In this document: positions 55,839-63,191 of the stretch, piece by piece
Numbering within the stretch: the stretch's first letter is position 1
Layout: each line of letters begins with the position of its first letter
NCBI RefSeq assembly: GCF_003991155.1
Contig: NZ_CP031293.1
Reading direction: 5' to 3' (one strand)
DNA length: 64,000 nt
Source: Escherichia coli
Lineage (GTDB): Bacteria; Pseudomonadota; Gammaproteobacteria; Enterobacterales; Enterobacteriaceae
The notes under the pieces: model-generated
Told to the model about the DNA's origin: nothing
The model's database searches: none
Seen by the model: the letters and a program-made list of their open reading frames with translations, nothing else
Program-made: the position numbers and the translations under genes

Positions 55839-56696
55839 CTACAATTCGTCCGTTCCGTCTGGTTGCCAGCCTTCCGTATACCAGATATGCAACAGCGCAT
55901 AAGAACGCCAGGGCTTCCAGCGTTCGGCATAACGGCGGATTTGTGCCGGTGTCATTCCCGGAAATCGCTGTTTAATCAGATAATCATCCGGCAGGAAAAC
56001 ATCTTTCGCCTGCCAGCCACGTAAGGCGAAATAATTCGCCGTCCAGCGCCCGATACCCGGAAAAGTTTGCAGCGTTTTCATCGCTTGTTCTACGTCGCTC
56101 GGTATTGTCATTGGTAAGGTGCCCTCCAGCGCCGCATTTGCCAGATGAATCAGTGCCTCTGCCCGTTTCAACGGCATACCTAACGCTTTTAATGCCTGCG
56201 GGTCGGCTGCAGCCAGCCGCTGAGGCGTGGGGAAGCAGACATAATCCGGAAAATCATCCAACCGTTCGCCATAAAGCTGTGCCACTCTGGCGGTCAATTT
56301 TGCCGCCATCGCCACGCTCACCAGTTGGCCTAAAATCGCCCGCACGCCCTGCTCAAAAGCATCAACACTGCCGGGTAAACGCAATCCGGGCCGCGCCGCG
56401 CCTAACTTGCCCAACGCACCGTTAACAATCTGCGGGTTACATTGCAGATCAAACAGGCGGCTCATTTTCGCCAGACACTCTGCGGCAACAGGTTCTAAAC
56501 CTGCACTTAAATTTATGTGCAGAGTATGGCGGGCTATATCCGGAATAGCAGTCACCACGCCGCGATATTCGCCCATCGCCAGACTACGGGCATAATAATC
56601 GTCAGCGACCGTTTCCACACCGTTCACCGCACGGGCGGCGAGAAATCCCAACATCCACGACCAGTCATACGGCGGCTGCCAGTTCAGGGTATACAT
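55839..56696 (-). CDS. alkA: DNA-3-methyladenine glycosylase II
   Basis: 285-aa ORF MYTLNWQPPYDWSWMLGFLAARAV... with HhH-GPD region. Confidence 0.9.
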   Translation of the reverse strand: MYTLNWQPPYDWSWMLGFLAARAVNGVETVADDYYARSLAMGEYRGVVTAIPDIARHTLHINLSAGLEPVAAECLAKMSRLFDLQCNPQIVNGALGKLGAARPGLRLPGSVDAFEQGVRAILGQLVSVAMAAKLTARVAQLYGERLDDFPDYVCFPTPQRLAAADPQALKALGMPLKRAEALIHLANAALEGTLPMTIPSDVEQAMKTLQTFPGIGRWTANYFALRGWQAKDVFLPDDYLIKQRFPGMTPAQIRRYAERWKPWRSYALLHIWYTEGWQPDGTDEL

Positions 56697-58194: not shown

Positions 58195-60144
58195 TCAGTA
58201 GCGGCTTAAATCAGCCTTCGCCTGAGCCAGTTTTTCTGCCGCCTGACGTAGCTGCTCCATCAACGGCATGGTCCGTGCTGGAGCATGAAGGCGGAATCGC
58301 TGCAACTCTGTCGCACCGACAGTCAACGCCGATTCCAGCCGATGTCGTTTGGCGGTCATTTTCGCCATTACCGCTTGTCTGTCTGCTGGCGTTACCGCTT
58401 CATTCGGCCTGAAAACAAAACGGCGTTCGCAACTCGCTTTCCAGTCGATAACCGCCTGGGTCAGATGATCACCAAAACCTTTTACTTGCTTAACGCTCCG
58501 TCGGGTAACATCTGCGGCGGTTTCAATACCAAAGGACCGTAACGCCGCTTTACGCGCAGGGCCAACGCCGGGAATAGAGGCAACATCAATAAAAAATCCC
58601 TCCAGAAACTTCTGCTTCTGCCGTTCCCTTGCGGTGTCCTGAAGTGCTGCCAGATCGCGCTTTTCTTCTTCCGGTAACCCAAGAATTTCGTCCTTCATTT
58701 TTTCGAGCATCGTCCGTTTGGCGATAAAACCTTCCAGCCCGCCCAACTGTTGGATCTGGCTGACTAAATGGTCATAGTCCATTTTTGCGCGATTAAAAGC
58801 CTCTCTTTGTCGCTGGACTTCTGCTTTGTACGCTTTGCTTGTCAGGCTGCCAATAATCCAGATAGCCGCCAGCACGGGAACCAAAATGATATAACGCGGT
58901 TCTACCTGAAGGCCGCAAAGCAGCAGCGATAACGCTGACAGTGCGATCTCAATCAGAATGATGTATTCACGCCTTAACAGGCCTAAAGGAAGCGGCCTGC
59001 CAGTCGGTTGGAAATGATCGGGTAATGGCAGTTGCAATGCTGGTGGTGCTACTGACGCCATCACCATCGCCCAGACTTTCGCCAGCACAAAATCACCGCT
59101 GGTGGTAATGACCTCTTCGCCGAGATCAATAAAATAGATAACGCCTTGATTATCCAGCGCACACCACGGGCAGTCAGTCAAATGACCGGGGTAAACATGC
59201 ATTGCCGAAACGGTACATTTCTTTAACTGTTGGCGTAGTAAATCAAGTGCCGCAACCCACGCTTTTGCCGTCGGACGCCCGGTTGCCACGCCACTTTCCG
59301 TGAATGCCTGCTGAAACATGGCTTCAACATCACCTGGTAACATCGACAGCGGAATAGATCGTGGCGGCGGTTTTAAACCACGTCGCTGATTATCTGACGC
59401 GTAGGCATAACGGAAATGGGCAATATCCGTCTCCAGCGCATTACCCGCATCAGAGATAAGCGGTACACCGGAATAAGGATGCCGACCACCAAACAAGACG
59501 TGAAAAATCAGCAACGCAAGGCCAAAATTATCGTGATTCGCGGTGCGTTCAAAGCCAACAAATGACGACAAGGTTTGTAGCTCTGGCGGCGTAAAATGCG
59601 ACACGCCAACTTCGCATAAATGCAACGTGCCATTAGCGTTAATCTGAAAGGAGTCGCTATCAATCAACACCACTTTGCTGTCGCGACCTACCATAAAGCT
59701 GTTCTGGTTTACGTCACCCACGACGTGCCCGTGCTCGTGAATCGTAGCAAAAGATGAAGCAATATTGCGCGCAACATAGAGTAGAAAATCCCACGCACAA
59801 TGAGGGTAACTCTGGCGACGATGTGCCGGGCTATAGATCATATGAATCGGTTCTTTACCTGAAACCTTCGGCATCATAAAACCGATAACCTTTCCGCCTC
59901 GTCCACCGTGAAGCGTTGCCTGCGGCCAGGCGACATAATTCAACAATTGCGCGTCAGCTGTCGCAGCCATAAAGGCAAGTTTGTCCTGTTTTAAGGCGGG
60001 TGGCGGCGTGTGATAAATCTTGGCAACGCTATCGGCAAACTCCTCGATATCATAAACCGCACCTTCACCGCCTTTGCCCAGTTCACGGCCTGGCGTAACG
60101 CACTCACCAGTAGCAGTATATAAAGTGGGTTTCATGGTAACCAC
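58195..60144 (-). CDS. yegI: Eukaryotic-like Ser/Thr protein kinase with central TM segment and C-terminal extension
   Basis: 649-aa ORF with kinase-like N-terminus (GKGGEGAVY...AKIY; HGHVVGDVNQNSF; DSDSF); start could be the Met 9 nt downstream. Confidence 0.85.
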   Translation of the reverse strand: MVTMKPTLYTATGECVTPGRELGKGGEGAVYDIEEFADSVAKIYHTPPPALKQDKLAFMAATADAQLLNYVAWPQATLHGGRGGKVIGFMMPKVSGKEPIHMIYSPAHRRQSYPHCAWDFLLYVARNIASSFATIHEHGHVVGDVNQNSFMVGRDSKVVLIDSDSFQINANGTLHLCEVGVSHFTPPELQTLSSFVGFERTANHDNFGLALLIFHVLFGGRHPYSGVPLISDAGNALETDIAHFRYAYASDNQRRGLKPPPRSIPLSMLPGDVEAMFQQAFTESGVATGRPTAKAWVAALDLLRQQLKKCTVSAMHVYPGHLTDCPWCALDNQGVIYFIDLGEEVITTSGDFVLAKVWAMVMASVAPPALQLPLPDHFQPTGRPLPLGLLRREYIILIEIALSALSLLLCGLQVEPRYIILVPVLAAIWIIGSLTSKAYKAEVQRQREAFNRAKMDYDHLVSQIQQLGGLEGFIAKRTMLEKMKDEILGLPEEEKRDLAALQDTARERQKQKFLEGFFIDVASIPGVGPARKAALRSFGIETAADVTRRSVKQVKGFGDHLTQAVIDWKASCERRFVFRPNEAVTPADRQAVMAKMTAKRHRLESALTVGATELQRFRLHAPARTMPLMEQLRQAAEKLAQAKADLSRY

Positions 60145-60893
60145 ATAGCCAGTGCCAACGTTTTATCATCATCCGTACGCTCGTTTACCGCCGGGCTGGA
60201 CAAAAACTGCTTTAACAATTCAGGTAATAAATCGAGTTGTTCCTGCGTTGCTGACGCCAGTCCATTGAAAAACGGGGTAAAGAAAGGCACATGCGGAGAA
60301 TTATCCAGCATATTTAACGCCAGTCTCTGAATACCATCCGTAAATGCTGCAACTCTATGCGCACGCTCAGTGCTGGTGAAAGTTTCCAGTCTGGAAACGG
60401 CATCTTCATCGGTAATGAAATGCGTCATGTTGGCATATTCACCCACCATCGGCGTGAGAGGCAATTGCAGACCGTGACCCAAATCTACCACCACGCCGCC
60501 ATCGCCAATCTGCATAATCAAGGTGCCGTCAGGCGATGAAATCAGTCCCAGAAATGTGCAGGCAAAATCGCGAACCGCTAATTCTTTGGCTTCCGCCTCG
60601 GCAAAAAGTCGCTGACGAACGGTCAGCACAATATCCGTTGCGAGGACATCATTAAGCCCCAATTCCCCGCCCTGCACTTTTTGCATCATATAAGCCATCG
60701 CTTCATTGACGGCAAGCGTCGCACCTTCGCCACCCTGCGAAACGCTGCCTGCGCCATCAGCGACAAATACCGTCAATAATGGCTGCTGGTCTTCTAGCCA
60801 GGCAACCTGCATCTGGCAGGCATCCTGGCAAGGCAAGTCCGCGCTGATGTGCGACGTTCCAACGGTTGATGCATAGACCAGACGCCAGCTCAC
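60132..60893 (-). CDS. yegK: PP2C-family Ser/Thr protein phosphatase
   Basis: 253-aa ORF with PP2C-like metal-binding motifs (VADGAGS, TDG); overlaps yegI start and yegL stop. Confidence 0.85.
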
Positions 60894-61549
60894 ACTGACG
60901 TCCAGCCTTTTGGCGCTTCCAGCACAACTTCCGTTCCCGGCGTGGAGCGGGAAACCGAACGCAGCGAACTGGATAACCAGCTAAACAGTTCACGGAATTG
61001 TAATCCCTGCAGTGGCAAAGGCTGACGAACGCTGATTTGTGCCAAAGTCTTCATATCCGCCCCCTGAACACCGATGGAAAAGAAGGCAAACTTCTTATCT
61101 TCTTCCCCCTGAAACACTTTGTTGGCGGCAGCCTGCCACTCATCGGTTGGAGCGCCATCAGTGATCAGGAAAATCCACGGGCGATAATACGAAATACCAT
61201 TGGCACGATACTCACGTTTGCGCTCCTCAACCATATTCAGGGCTTTGGTAATGGCAGCGCCCATTGGTGTATCGCCCTGGGCAAACAGGATGGGCGGGAA
61301 AAAATTAGCGGCGCTGGTAAAGGGTTGTTCCACATGCACCGGGCCGAACGTCACAATACCGAGTTCCACTCTTTTTAAGGCCAGCGAATCGGCAAGCAGC
61401 TCATCGCGAAAGGTAACCAATCCGGCGTTAAGTTCATTAATGGGTCTACCGTTCATAGAACCAGAAACATCCAGCAGCAAAATGCAGGGGCAACGTGGTT
61501 CCGGGTTACTGGCAAAATCGCTGGTGGCAAACGTGATTTGTTCGCTCAT
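60890..61549 (-). CDS. yegL: von Willebrand factor type A (VWA) domain protein
   Basis: 219-aa ORF with MIDAS-like DVSGSM motif near the N-terminus. Confidence 0.85.
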
Positions 61550-61730
61550 AAGAAATCCTTTCTTAGAGAATTATTGAGGTCCGGTATCATACCGATTGCA
61601 ATAATGAAATAAGAGCAAACGAAGAAACTTTCAGAATTAGGCCCGGCGGCGCAGAAAATTTTGCTATTCGCCTCGCAAGAACGGAGAGCCGTCGATTGAC
61701 ACTAAGGGCGGAGTGACATAATTTCAGGAG

Positions 61731-61858
61731 TGAGGGTTAGGGAGAGGTTTCCCCCTCCCCCTGGTGTTCTTAGTAAGCCTGGAAGCTAATCACTAAGAGT
61801 ATCACCAGTATGATGACGTGCTTCATCATAACCCTTTCCTTATTAAAAGTCCTCTTCT
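61731..61858 (+). ncRNA. Sib-family antisense sRNA, copy 1 (approximate ends)
   Basis: -35 ttgaca (61696..61701), 17-nt spacer, -10 taattt; transcript fully overlaps the ibs ORF on the opposite strand; ends at GC hairpin plus tttcccgttt. Confidence 0.5.
61770..61829 (-). CDS. ibsA: Ibs-family type I toxin peptide, copy 1 (MMKHVIILVILLVISFQAY)
   Basis: 19-codon hydrophobic ORF antisense to the repeat unit; closely resembles IbsA as remembered. Confidence 0.7.
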   Translation of the reverse strand: MMKHVIILVILLVISFQAY

Positions 61859-62064
61859 CCGGGAGAGGGTTTCCCGTTTCAGCGTCCCGCTGAAATCGTC
61901 GGCTTACCTCCTTTCGCCCTGAATGCAGTCTATCGCTAACGCGTGAACAAAATAGTTTCCTCTGTGATTATTGCGTAACGTCTCGCAAAGAATATTTGCT
62001 GGCAGGATCGCAGACTACAAAGCCTGCGGATTGACAATCTGATTGTGAAGGCATACTTTCAGGA

Positions 62065-62207
62065 GTGAGGGTAGAGCGGGGTTTCCCCCGCCCTGGTAGT
62101 CTTAGTAAGCGGGGAAGCTTATGACTAAGAGCACCACGATGATGAGTATCTTCATCATGACCCTTTCCTTATTTAAGGCCCCTTCCTCGGGAGGGGCTTT
62201 CCCGTTT
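62065..62207 (+). ncRNA. Sib-family antisense sRNA, copy 2 (approximate ends)
   Basis: ttgaca -35 at 62031..62036, tacttt -10; terminator hairpin gccccttcctcgggaggggc plus tttcccgttt. Confidence 0.5.
62102..62158 (-). CDS. Ibs-family type I toxin peptide, copy 2 (MMKILIIVVLLVISFPAY)
   Basis: 18-codon hydrophobic ORF at the equivalent place in repeat unit 2. Confidence 0.7.
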   Translation of the reverse strand: MMKILIIVVLLVISFPAY

Positions 62208-62392
62208 CAGCGTCCCGCTGAAATCGTCGGCCTACCTCCTTTTGCCCTGAATACAGTCTATCGCTAACGCGTGAACAAAATAGTTTCCTCTGTGATTATT
62301 GCGTAACGTCTCGCAAAGAATATTTGCTGGCAGGATCGCAGACTACAAAGCCTGCGGATTGACAATCTGATTGTGAAGGCATACTTTCAGGA

Positions 62393-62535
62393 GTGAGGGT
62401 AGAGCGGGGTTTCCCCCGCCCTGGTAGTCTTAGTAAGCGGGGAAGCTTATGACTAAGAGCACCACGATGATGAGTATCTTCATCATGACCCTTTCCTTAT
62501 TTAAGGCCCCTTCCTCGGGAGGGGCTTTCCCGTTT
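62393..62535 (+). ncRNA. Sib-family antisense sRNA, copy 3 (approximate ends)
   Basis: Same promoter and terminator architecture as copy 2. Confidence 0.5.
62430..62486 (-). CDS. Ibs-family type I toxin peptide, copy 3 (MMKILIIVVLLVISFPAY)
   Basis: 18-codon ORF identical in protein to copy 2. Confidence 0.7.
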   Translation of the reverse strand: MMKILIIVVLLVISFPAY

Positions 62536-62720
62536 CAGCGTCCCGCTGAAATCGTCGGCCTACCTCCTTTTGCCCTGAATACAGTCTATCGCTAACGCGT
62601 GAACAAAATAGTTTCCCCTGTGATTATTGCGTAACGACTCGCAAAGAATATTTGCTGGCAGGATCGCAGACTACAAAGCCTGCGGATTGACAATCTGATT
62701 GTGAAGGCATACTTTCAGGA

Positions 62721-62863
62721 GTGAGGGTAGAGCGGGGTTTCCCCCGCCCTGGTAGTCTTAGTAAGCCGGGAAGCTTATGACTAAGAGCACCACGATGATG
62801 ATCCACTTCATCATGACCCTTTCCTTATTTAAGGCCCCTTCCTCGGGAGGGGCTTTCCCGTTT
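62721..62863 (+). ncRNA. Sib-family antisense sRNA, copy 4 (approximate ends)
   Basis: Same promoter and terminator architecture. Confidence 0.5.
62758..62814 (-). CDS. Ibs-family type I toxin peptide, copy 4 (MMKWIIIVVLLVISFPAY)
   Basis: 18-codon ORF; differs from copies 2 and 3 at positions 4-5. Confidence 0.65.
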   Translation of the reverse strand: MMKWIIIVVLLVISFPAY

Positions 62864-63048
62864 CAGCGTCCCGCTGAAATCATCGGCTTACCTCCTTTCG
62901 CCCTGAATGCAGTCTATCGCTGACTTGCGGATAAAATAGTTTCACATGTGATTATTGCGTGACGTCTCGCAAAGAATATTTGCTGGCAGGATCGCAGACT
63001 GCAAAGCCTGCGGATTGACAATCGGACCGTGAAGGCATACTTTCAGGA

Positions 63049-63191
63049 GTGAGGGTAGAGCGGGGTTTCCCCCGCCCTGGTAGTCTTAGTATGCTGGGTA
63101 GCTAATCACTAAGAGCACCACGATGATGAGTAGCTTCATCATGACCCTTTCCTTATTTAAGGCCCCTTCCTCGGGAGGGGCTTTCCCGTTT
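63049..63191 (+). ncRNA. Sib-family antisense sRNA, copy 5 (approximate ends)
   Basis: ttgaca at 63015..63020; terminator plus tttcccgttt near 63183. Confidence 0.5.
63086..63142 (-). CDS. Ibs-family type I toxin peptide, copy 5 (MMKLLIIVVLLVISYPAY)
   Basis: 18-codon ORF; variant C-terminal region. Confidence 0.65.
   Translation of the reverse strand: MMKLLIIVVLLVISYPAY

Follow-up and report, generated by a model that had tools for sequence, protein, structure and literature searches.

The TerY-P (TerY-phosphorylation) triad of ter clusters was described by Anantharaman, Iyer and Aravind in 2012, as cited in passages of PMC11090510. One type of TerY-P has been reported to act against phages (Gao et al., 2020, as related in passages of PMC7699616 and PMC11090510).

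In Escherichia coli, the yegL-pphC-yegI locus was described by Rajagopalan, Nagle and Dworkin (J Bacteriol 2018; bioRxiv 10.1101/303594) and further by Rajagopalan and Dworkin (FEBS Lett 2020; bioRxiv 10.1101/819920). The phosphatase PphC dephosphorylates the autophosphorylating membrane kinase YegI in vitro (bioRxiv 10.1101/303594; bioRxiv 10.1101/819920), and its D46N variant is dead (bioRxiv 10.1101/303594). YegI autophosphorylates on serine in vitro and PphC removes the phosphate from Ser162; autophosphorylation of this residue is important for activation of the kinase, and the point mutants K39D and D141N have been built (bioRxiv 10.1101/819920). PhoA-LacZ topology analysis placed the N- and C-termini of YegI, a protein of the inner membrane, on the cytoplasmic side (bioRxiv 10.1101/819920). 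The operon, its overlaps and its interruption by yegJ in K-12 are already known from the literature, which includes an RNA Biology paper of 2026: the difference in yegJ between K and B strains has been published, and a four-nucleotide ATGA overlap of pphC and yegI has been reported for REL606 and O157:H7 (bioRxiv 10.1101/303594; bioRxiv 10.1101/819920).

Here, we analyzed this locus in a stretch of 64,000 nucleotides of E. coli DNA, referred to as the window. It is likely that the window carries the ancestral, uninterrupted form of a stand-alone TerY-P-class switch, a judgement that blends the identity of the operon, the polarity of the yegJ event and a role in conflict, each of which is graded separately below.

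Organization of the yegL-pphC-yegI locus

The following genes, junctions and start codons are referred to throughout:

60890..61549, minus strand: yegL, open reading frame for a 219-aa TerY-type VWA protein
60132..60893, minus strand: pphC (yegK), open reading frame for a 253-aa PP2C-type Ser/Thr phosphatase with a GTG start
58195..60135, minus strand: yegI, open reading frame for a 646-aa membrane Ser/Thr kinase with an ATG start as in RefSeq
60890..60893, minus strand: yegL/pphC junction, GTGA formed by the yegL stop and the pphC start (4 nt)
60132..60135, minus strand: pphC/yegI junction, ATGA formed by the pphC stop and the yegI start (4 nt)
60142..60144, minus strand: in-frame GTG upstream of the yegI ATG; the longest yegI frame reaches 60144 and would give a 13-nt overlap

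A sequence-only reading of the window had placed genes for a VWA protein, a PP2C phosphatase and a Ser/Thr kinase on the minus strand at 58195-61549, which is borne out by the open reading frames. By megablast, all three match at 100% genes that bear these names on E. coli chromosomes, and comparison with the published locus revealed the same locus without structural difference. The allele of the window differs from K-12 by about 5% of the nucleotides in yegI and pphC. Together, identity and organization mark the locus almost certainly as the E. coli yegL-pphC-yegI operon.

At both junctions the stop codon of one gene overlaps the start codon of the next, as expected of a translationally coupled operon. 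The 4-nt overlap claimed earlier for yegL and yegK is present as GTGA, while the overlap of about 13 nt claimed for yegK and yegI arises only with the GTG at 60144 and shrinks to the 4-nt ATGA with the ATG start. This GTG is probably not the start, as RefSeq uses the ATG and alignments of 25 and of 53 homologues begin level with it.

The same spacing is found well beyond E. coli. A -4 overlap between yegL and pphC is present in 42 of 70 homologous loci; the gap between pphC and yegI is -4 in 15 loci, and most values lie within about 20 nt. Median gaps across about 70 homologous loci were -4 nt for yegL/pphC and +3 nt for pphC/yegI. Since stop/start overlaps recur over the homologous loci, the tight spacing is not a matter of chance. 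Such packing is typical of translational coupling, as the sequence-only reading had also proposed, and the three genes are presumably co-translated and co-transcribed. A simple consensus scan detected no sigma-70-like promoter upstream of yegL, and consensus promoter and terminator scans of the window yielded nothing exceeding chance. The 12-bp convergent spacer between yegD and yegI contains no significant hairpin (z = -0.68).

Domain architecture of YegL, PphC and YegI

The sequence-only reading had assigned VWA, PP2C and kinase domains to the three proteins. For YegL (VWA, 1.3e-9; VWA_2, 3.3e-7) and PphC (PP2C_2, 3.8e-51) this was supported directly by Pfam matches, whereas YegI itself did not match Pfam Pkinase at E<=10 and was recognized as a kinase by way of its relatives and its structural model.

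The MIDAS motif of YegL is intact (D27-x-S29-x-S31, T94, D131) and at least 95% conserved among 70 homologues, and the same degree of conservation was observed for a Ser-rich C-terminal tail (W191, L192, S193, S195, S200, S202). YegL aligns with the first VWA protein of the IncHI2 ter cluster (31% identity, E 3e-26), and related plasmid matches carry a TerY-C/VWA annotation. By these matches, YegL is a TerY-type VWA protein as in a TerY-P triad. In PphC, conservation of at least 95% among 68 homologues extends to D24, D46, D131, D186 and the NERTDDDK motif. The phosphatase aligns over its full length with the PP2C protein of the ter cluster (24% identity, E 5e-6), and its gene adjoins the VWA gene, with the 4-nt overlap with yegL, as in a TerY-P triad.

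YegI is composed of four parts of interest:

59230..60135, minus strand: kinase domain, aa 1-302, Hanks-type but divergent
59146..59226, minus strand: zinc-ribbon-like element, aa 304-330, with C307, H313, C322 and C325 invariant
58825..58971, minus strand: transmembrane helical hairpin, approximately aa 389-437, predicted helices at 389-408 and from 415 onward
58423..58593, minus strand: cytoplasmic double helix-hairpin-helix (HhH) region, aa 515-571, motifs GVGPARK and GFGDHLT

Seventeen of 25 aligned YegI homologues match Pkinase at E<=1e-3 (best 3.8e-13), and a profile of the family matched 168 solved kinases in the PDB (best 1.5e-6). The AlphaFold model of YegI has a mean pLDDT of 88.3, and its top Foldseek matches are PknB-type kinases with a probability of 1.00 and TM scores of 0.67-0.74 on the target. 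Homologue alignments identified K39, D141, N143, D159, D161, S162 and the TPPE and GRHP motifs as invariant. By sequence and model, YegI has the features of a Hanks-type kinase, namely the kinase fold, the catalytic Lys, the Asp and Asn of the catalytic loop and the metal-binding Asp.

The C-terminal part of YegI consists, in this order, of the zinc ribbon, the transmembrane hairpin, a coiled coil and the two HhH motifs. The four Cys and His residues of the ribbon are invariant in 53 homologues; the element is modelled as two short strands and a helix, aligns with the CPxC of the ter-cluster kinase and presumably binds metal. Alignment of YegI with the C-lobe and Cys-rich ribbon of the ter kinase gave 23% identity (E 9e-7), so that YegI, encoded after the phosphatase and carrying a putative zinc-binding ribbon, corresponds to the kinase of a TerY-P triad. 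The membrane hairpin is weakly conserved in sequence, yet present in all aligned homologues. For the HhH region, Pfam HHH_5 was matched in YegI (7.6e-4) and in 11 of 25 relatives (E<=0.1). All 25 homologues of the smaller alignment share its glycines G525, G553 and G555; in the larger set G553 and G555 are found in 53 of 53 and G525 in at least 90%. By analogy, the double HhH region may bind DNA.

Comparison with TerY-P and other described systems

The ter-plasmid TerY-P triad and yegL-pphC-yegI are built from three shared protein families arranged in identical order, and in terms of sequence YegL, PphC and YegI are all homologous to the VWA, PP2C and kinase proteins of the ter plasmid. The alignment of all three proteins gives substance to the likeness to three-component signalling or conflict modules that had been noticed from the window. 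The E. coli triad differs in standing alone, without terD, terW or the biosynthetic neighbours of ter clusters, and in having one VWA gene instead of three. Unlike the ter kinase, YegI has an extra membrane hairpin and the double HhH region after the zinc ribbon. The anti-phage TerY-P system of Gao et al. (2020) is, according to PMC7699616 and PMC11090510, likewise a stand-alone three-gene cassette of VWA, PP2C and kinase; its kinase is said in the cited passage of PMC11090510 to end in an OB fold, whereas YegI ends in the transmembrane hairpin and HhH motifs.

Scans with defence models provided little resemblance. With the PADLOC models, TerY gave E = 0.014 against YegL, PphC matched nothing, and YegI had weak generic kinase matches but none to the TerY-P kinase; neither these proteins nor three distant homologous triads had a system-level match in PADLOC, and an NCBIfam scan of the three proteins returned sub-threshold domain matches only. 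Two further systems share some features. A defence system with the genes CnuB/C/H/E also has a kinase followed by a zinc ribbon, a VWA protein with a conserved MIDAS and a defence setting, but these genes do not adjoin yegL-pphC-yegI in E. coli or in the sampled homologous loci. The single-gene PD-T4-6 defence kinases show weak sequence similarity in the catalytic core, with E 2e-4 against YegI and values down to 5.5e-12 against a distant member of the family. The likeness extends no further than the kinase fold, and these proteins act singly, lacking VWA and PP2C partners.

Distribution and gene neighbourhood of the family

For the family, genomes were scanned with exact peptide patterns, and the best 80 of 126 matches were used. 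Among the matches listed, about 70 loci representing more than 10 phyla share the order VWA-PP2C-kinase, and only one of them (L079) is permuted; this conserved collinear order with tight spacing is what a TerY-P triad would be expected to display. Within the Enterobacteriaceae, the matches listed came only from Escherichia and one Klebsiella species, and the closest other relatives among them belong to the Burkholderiales (about 64%). Because of the exact-pattern scan and the use of the best 80 of 126 matches, absence of the triad from Salmonella or Citrobacter is suggestive only.

The large kinase family, spread across many phyla, comprises at least 3219 clusters (50% identity, E<=1e-30), and homologues reside on 38 non-E. 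coli plasmids. A conserved fourth gene was not detected in the flanks of 75 loci, the largest flank cluster being confined to 5 loci. About 7 of 19 sampled homologous loci adjoin strong PADLOC matches (Wadjet JetA/JetC, a type I restriction enzyme, MADS mad3 and PD-Lambda-4), in a sample picked for large open reading frames and without a matched control.

Possible role of the triad

Our best guess for the triad is a self-contained phospho-switch acting in stress or conflict. The three genes would be read as one unit, and translation is most likely coupled through their overlaps, which would keep adaptor, phosphatase and kinase in fixed proportion. PphC would hold YegI off, until a trigger tips the balance toward active YegI. 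This trigger could be sensed via the MIDAS site of YegL, the membrane hairpin or the putatively DNA-binding double HhH region in the cytoplasm. Active YegI would then phosphorylate its targets, with the Ser-rich tail of YegL as one candidate, and the most likely role of the switch would be a response to stress or to invaders such as phage or mobile DNA.

A role as a conflict module is a tentative proposal. Hints in its favour are the lack of a fourth gene, the defence neighbours, the plasmid homologues and the large kinase family; counted against it are the fixed position in Escherichia, purifying selection, the mismatch with PADLOC and the lack of a reported phage phenotype. Selection was analyzed in diverse strains, with dN/dS values of 0.058 for yegL, 0.143 for pphC and 0.151 for yegI. 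At values of no more than 0.151 all three genes are constrained, and diversifying selection was not detected at the gene level (dN/dS <=0.15). The highest synonymous divergence of the three genes was observed for pphC.

Fixed position and purifying selection fit housekeeping signalling equally well, and an ordinary Escherichia pathway instead of a conflict system is a real possibility, if short of probable. YegI might then act on endogenous substrates in stationary-phase, envelope or DNA-damage control, with PphC resetting the system and YegL serving as scaffold. Such a pathway agrees with the chromosomal place of the triad, which is flanked by yegD and mdtA in E. coli as in the cryptic Escherichia clades, with the purifying selection on all three genes, and with the weak stationary-phase expression of yegI and its recurrent mutations in the long-term evolution experiment (bioRxiv 10.1101/303594; bioRxiv 10.1101/819920). 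It also suits the PADLOC defence models, none of which matches the triad, and the 50,697 phage records, in which tblastn found no homologue of PphC. It is less easily reconciled with the patchy distribution described above, in which the matches listed from the Enterobacteriaceae are limited to Escherichia and one Klebsiella species and the Burkholderiales follow at about 64%. Further points against housekeeping are a self-contained cassette without conserved neighbours that is found on many plasmids and often beside defence genes, and the homology to TerY-P triads, one type of which is reported as anti-phage in passages of PMC7699616 and PMC11090510.

The stress or conflict switch can also be put in a more specific form, which we consider doubtful: the YegL-PphC-YegI family may represent an unrecognized stand-alone TerY-P-class system against phage or mobile DNA, in which the membrane-tethered HhH region would sense incoming DNA, PphC set the threshold and the YegL tail be the first substrate. 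If true, nearly every E. coli would possess a defence system that is missed by current defence-finding tools. The large, horizontally spread family, the homology to TerY-P and the defence neighbours make the triad worth including in a screen for phage or stress phenotypes.

It is very improbable that the operon is a silent, decaying remnant without current function. This idea draws on the reports of the authors who characterized the proteins, who did not find conditions of robust expression (bioRxiv 10.1101/303594; bioRxiv 10.1101/819920), and on the insertion elements and pseudogenes of some strains: ISVsa5 is inserted in a yegI, IS1 copies are present in pphC and strain NN5 has internal stops in pphC and yegJ. 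Decay is contradicted by dN/dS values of 0.06-0.15 across diverse strains, by 13 complete E. coli loci, 11 of which have intact reading frames (all but those of NN5 and 510016), by the invariant catalytic, MIDAS and zinc-ribbon residues across homologues and by the activity of recombinant PphC and YegI in published work.

Origin of the yegJ-containing junction

The sequence-only reading had placed yegJ between yegI and yegK in K-12 and had taken the window for the uninterrupted arrangement; both were confirmed. In MG1655, yegJ (b2071, plus strand) lies between yegI and pphC, and alignment of the region (blastn, window against MG1655) revealed a 785-bp AT-rich segment with yegJ in place of 50 bp at the pphC/yegI junction:

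60091..60140, minus strand: 50 bp replaced in K-12-type strains, comprising the 3' end of pphC (last two sense codons and stop) and codons 1-15 of yegI

The K-12 segment has a GC content of 37%, compared with about 51% in the flanking genes. As its boundaries and the new N-terminus of YegI are identical in four diverse yegJ-positive strains, although yegJ carriers are not monophyletic in trees of the flanking genes, the K-12 state is, to judge from these sequences, the product of one event with a single origin. In a census of 5426 complete E. coli genomes, yegJ was present in 1934 (36%) and the compact junction in 3471 (64%). A recent published statement restricts yegJ to K strains; with 36% of complete E. 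coli genomes carrying the segment, this is too narrow.

The compact junction is very likely ancestral and the K-12 layout derived, because the triad of the cryptic Escherichia clades, E. whittamii among them, is compact and lies between mdtA and yegD, yegJ is lacking from about 75 non-E. coli triads among the matches listed, and the segment is AT-rich. In Superficieibacter and a related metagenomic genome, yegJ is found between yegD and mdtA in the same orientation while the triad is absent; nucleotide identity there is 75% for yegJ, similar to yegD (77%) and mdtA (75%). The converse idea, that the yegJ layout is ancestral and the window arose by a secondary deletion fusing pphC and yegI, can appeal to this position and flank-like divergence of an old enterobacterial gene and to the differences of up to about 5% among E. 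coli yegJ alleles, but it is hardly credible and already largely refuted, as a deletion could not have rebuilt the exact ATGA and the native N-terminus shared with the cryptic clades, Klebsiella spallanzanii and distant phyla, the roughly 75 non-E. coli triads listed are free of yegJ, the segment is AT-rich against its flanks, and the triad is missing altogether from the genomes in which yegD and mdtA flank yegJ.

The compact form being ancestral, about a third of E. coli, K-12 included, would owe to one old event the exchange of 50 bp for 785 bp, a swap that abolishes the overlap and probably uncouples yegI from yegL-pphC. The 785-bp insert contains 8 promoter-like sites compared with 2.8 +/- 2.3 expected, and a stable hairpin directly follows the pphC stop (z = -2.7). 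If the triad were a defence system, uncoupling of kinase and phosphatase in the 36% of strains with yegJ could explain the absent K-12 phenotype. With K-12 as a derived minority state, work on the kinase and phosphatase is better done in a yegJ-negative strain.

More distant YegJ homologues are located in unrelated gene contexts. Two divergent YegJ proteins assigned to E. coli were considered as a clue to the donor and rejected, as they stem from frameshift-ridden assemblies. The new N-terminus of K-12 YegI, MKTNIKVFTSTGELTTL, retains the family pattern, which hints that the segment may have brought with it the 5' end of a diverged yegI.

Gene layout and published background

The window is E. 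coli chromosome, and the 5-kb stretch around the triad shows a 100% match to many complete genomes, annotated yegD, yegI, pphC, yegL and ibsA. The ORF listing agrees with the sequence-only reading, which had placed three minus-strand genes at 58195-61549:

58195-60135, minus strand: yegI, Ser/Thr kinase (longest ORF to 60144)
60132-60893, minus strand: pphC (yegK), PP2C phosphatase, GTG start
60890-61549, minus strand: yegL, VWA protein

At the first junction, the yegL stop and the pphC GTG start share GTGA, confirming the proposed 4-nt overlap. For pphC and yegI an overlap of about 13 nt had been proposed; the genes do overlap, but by 4 nt, the pphC stop and the yegI ATG sharing ATGA, as the longer version needs an upstream in-frame GTG. 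RefSeq uses the ATG and not this GTG, YegI homologues from many phyla begin level with the ATG in alignments, and the four-nucleotide ATGA overlap is already in the literature (Rajagopalan and Dworkin; bioRxiv 10.1101/819920).

The observation is real and its interpretation correct, and it is already known. Published work has described the operon and how K and B strains differ in yegJ, and has shown that PphC acts as a PP2C phosphatase, that YegI is an active kinase crossing the membrane twice, and that PphC dephosphorylates it (Rajagopalan, Nagle and Dworkin 2018, bioRxiv 10.1101/303594; Rajagopalan and Dworkin 2020, bioRxiv 10.1101/819920). A 2026 paper (RNA Biology) showed the synteny and reported RNase E as a binding partner of YegJ, whose overproduction is toxic. 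Those who characterised the proteins found no conditions of robust expression. Of value beyond the known facts are the results on ancestral state and population spread, together with the nomination of the family as a candidate TerY-P-like system.

The yegJ segment of K-12

In MG1655, yegJ lies on the plus strand between yegI and pphC, as the sequence-only reading had stated. Alignment located the insertion at the yegI/yegK junction, where 50 bp of the window (60091-60140) correspond to 785 bp in K-12 (MG1655 2150935-2151719; 7936-8720 of L001, the fetched MG1655 locus). The replaced 50 bp hold the 3' end of pphC (two codons and the stop) and the 5' end of yegI (15 codons). In K-12 the segment (GC content 37% versus ~51% in neighbouring genes) provides a new C-terminal dipeptide for PphC and a new 17-residue N-terminus for YegI. 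The latter, MKTNIKVFTSTGELTTLGRELG (L001 7936-7986), keeps the family pattern xTxTGxxxTLGRELG and is at some positions closer to the Klebsiella spallanzanii protein than to the native E. coli one. The sequence suggests that the inserted DNA brought the 5' end of a diverged yegI. The segment carries surplus promoter-like sites (8 observed versus 2.8 +/- 2.3 expected) and, directly downstream of the pphC stop codon, a stable hairpin (z = -2.7). Transcription of yegL-pphC thus plausibly stops within the segment, and yegI and yegJ would have divergent promoters of their own.

The closest YegJ relatives outside E. coli, with 75-76% identity, are found in Superficieibacter electus and a related metagenomic genome. 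In both (L082 6001-6462 and L102 6001-6462) yegJ is flanked by yegD and mdtA in the same orientation, and yegL-pphC-yegI is absent. Given this position and a nucleotide divergence from K-12 on a par with the flanking core genes (identity 75% for yegJ, 77% for yegD, 75% for mdtA), yegJ looks like an old resident of the yegD-mdtA interval in some enterobacteria. If it is indeed native there, as may be the case, its position inside the E. coli triad is puzzling.

The interval holds further genes. From yegJ to mdtA, Superficieibacter (L082 6914-10530) carries the immunity-type genes SUKH/SMI1, Tli3, Tle3_C and Imm52, so the interval gathers conflict-related cargo in another genus too. Between yegL and mdtA, the window (61696-63157) contains five tandem Sib RNA/ibs toxin units with a period of ~328 bp, each matching Rfam SIB_RNA at 139-150 bits. 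The units form a type I toxin-antitoxin array of variable copy number, with two in K-12 and one to five in the other strains compared.

Ancestral state and population spread

A scan with PphC, using one genome per species, yielded at least 79 loci. Among the matches listed, the order of the YegL, PphC and YegI homologues was kept in nearly all loci, and a YegJ homologue was found in none. The yegL/pphC overlap of 4 nt was present in 42 of 70 loci, the pphC/yegI gap being mostly within 20 nt, and in cryptic Escherichia lineages, E. whittamii among them, the compact triad sits between mdtA and yegD. Taken together, the widespread order and tight gaps, the scanned loci without YegJ and the cryptic lineages indicate that the compact form is ancestral, which bears out the idea that the window has the uninterrupted arrangement.

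Four diverse yegJ-positive strains share the same boundaries, spacer lengths and new YegI N-terminus; therefore, the insertion arose once. Since yegJ-positive strains are scattered in the trees of pphC, yegI, yegL and yegD and form no joint group, either recombination carried the allele from one background to another, or the allele's age left time for its flanks to be reshuffled. In a census of 5426 complete E. coli genomes, 1934 carried yegJ and 3471 the compact junction; the yegJ carriers came from several backgrounds, with KO11FL and the clinical isolate MS14387 among them. With these 1934 genomes, restricting yegJ to K strains, as the 2026 paper does (RNA Biology), is too narrow.

Two distant loci deviate from the common layout. 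In a Melainabacteria genome (L077 6784-7977), the PphC and YegI homologues are separated by a same-strand gene for a 397-aa TPR-repeat protein, which interrupts the same junction independently; the kinase there is without the HhH region. An Acidobacteria locus (L079 3342-6771) has the permuted order kinase, VWA, PP2C.

Domains and relation to TerY-P

Pfam identified PphC as a clear PP2C (PP2C_2, 3.8e-51) and YegL as a VWA protein (VWA, 1.3e-9), both as proposed. Across 70 YegL homologues, the MIDAS residues D27, S29, S31, T94 and D131 are kept at 95% or more. YegL ends in a Ser-rich tail (residues ~185-219, window 60890-61000, ...PKGW), in which 95% or more of the same 70 homologues, from many phyla, keep W191, L192, S193, S195, S200 and S202; the tail is a candidate phosphorylation target of YegI and PphC.

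A Pfam search with YegI alone gave no Pkinase match, only HHH_5 at residues 515-551. Because this touched the domain assignment on which the sequence-only reading could fail, YegI was tested further. Pkinase was matched by 17 of 25 aligned family members, the family profile found 168 solved kinases, K39, D141, N143, D159, D161 and S162 are invariant in homologue alignments, and the AlphaFold model (mean pLDDT 88.3) matches PknB and other Hanks kinases with probability 1.00. Model and alignment revealed three further elements beyond the kinase domain: an invariant C307-H313-C322-C325 ribbon, a two-helix membrane hairpin and a long helical region with two GxG hairpins. This last region is a double helix-hairpin-helix, in which G553 and G555 are invariant in all 53 sequences, while G525 is invariant in the set of 25 and kept in at least 90% of the 53.

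TerY-P modules have the same domain triad (PMC11090510; PMC7699616). An IncHI2 ter plasmid has the gene order VWA, TerD, VWA, TerY-C, hypothetical, PP2C, kinase, and its proteins align with YegL (31% identity, E 3e-26), PphC (24% over full length, E 5e-6) and YegI (23% over C-lobe and Cys ribbon, E 9e-7). As each E. coli protein aligns with its counterpart, the locus has the features of the TerY-P class, in line with the suggested likeness to three-component signalling/conflict modules. It does not have those of the experimentally tested anti-phage TerY-P, whose kinase ends in an OB fold (PMC11090510), whereas YegI has the membrane hairpin and HhH. PADLOC models gave no match to the triad or its distant relatives.

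Clues to function

The YegI kinase family comprises at least 3219 clusters at E<=1e-30, most top ones full length. Triad homologues occur on 38 plasmids from outside E. coli; of the 46 plasmid records matched in total, 21 were typed conjugative. No occurrence was found in the phage records searched, and no conserved neighbours of the cassette were found. Strong PADLOC matches in ~7 of 19 loci, from 20 large neighbouring proteins in a sample that favours large ORFs and is without control, are only a hint of defence genes beside triad homologues (Wadjet JetA/JetC, a type I restriction enzyme, MADS mad3, PD-Lambda-4_A, a SWIM-type and a caspase-like protein). The best reading is a self-contained phospho-switch for stress or conflict, in which PphC would hold the membrane kinase YegI off until a trigger arrives; the main rival is a housekeeping signalling role.

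In Escherichia, purifying selection acts on each gene of the triad, with dN/dS of 0.058 for yegL, 0.143 for pphC and 0.151 for yegI. pphC (60132-60893) has the top dS of six genes compared (0.166 versus 0.084-0.137 for the other five), and a genome labelled E. coli (E69) has a PphC of just 83% identity and a YegL of 97%, which points to old alleles or imported segments in pphC. The locus is inactivated in some strains: yegI is interrupted by ISVsa5 in PEC403 (NZ_CM168009.1), two IS1 copies break the pphC/yegJ region in 510016 (L093 3748-5788), and NN5 (L092 4697-5984) has internal stops in pphC and yegJ. Outside the triad, alkA (55839-56696) encodes 285 aa and its K-12 and Nissle counterparts 282 aa, with sequence differences over the last ~17 nt at the 3' end.
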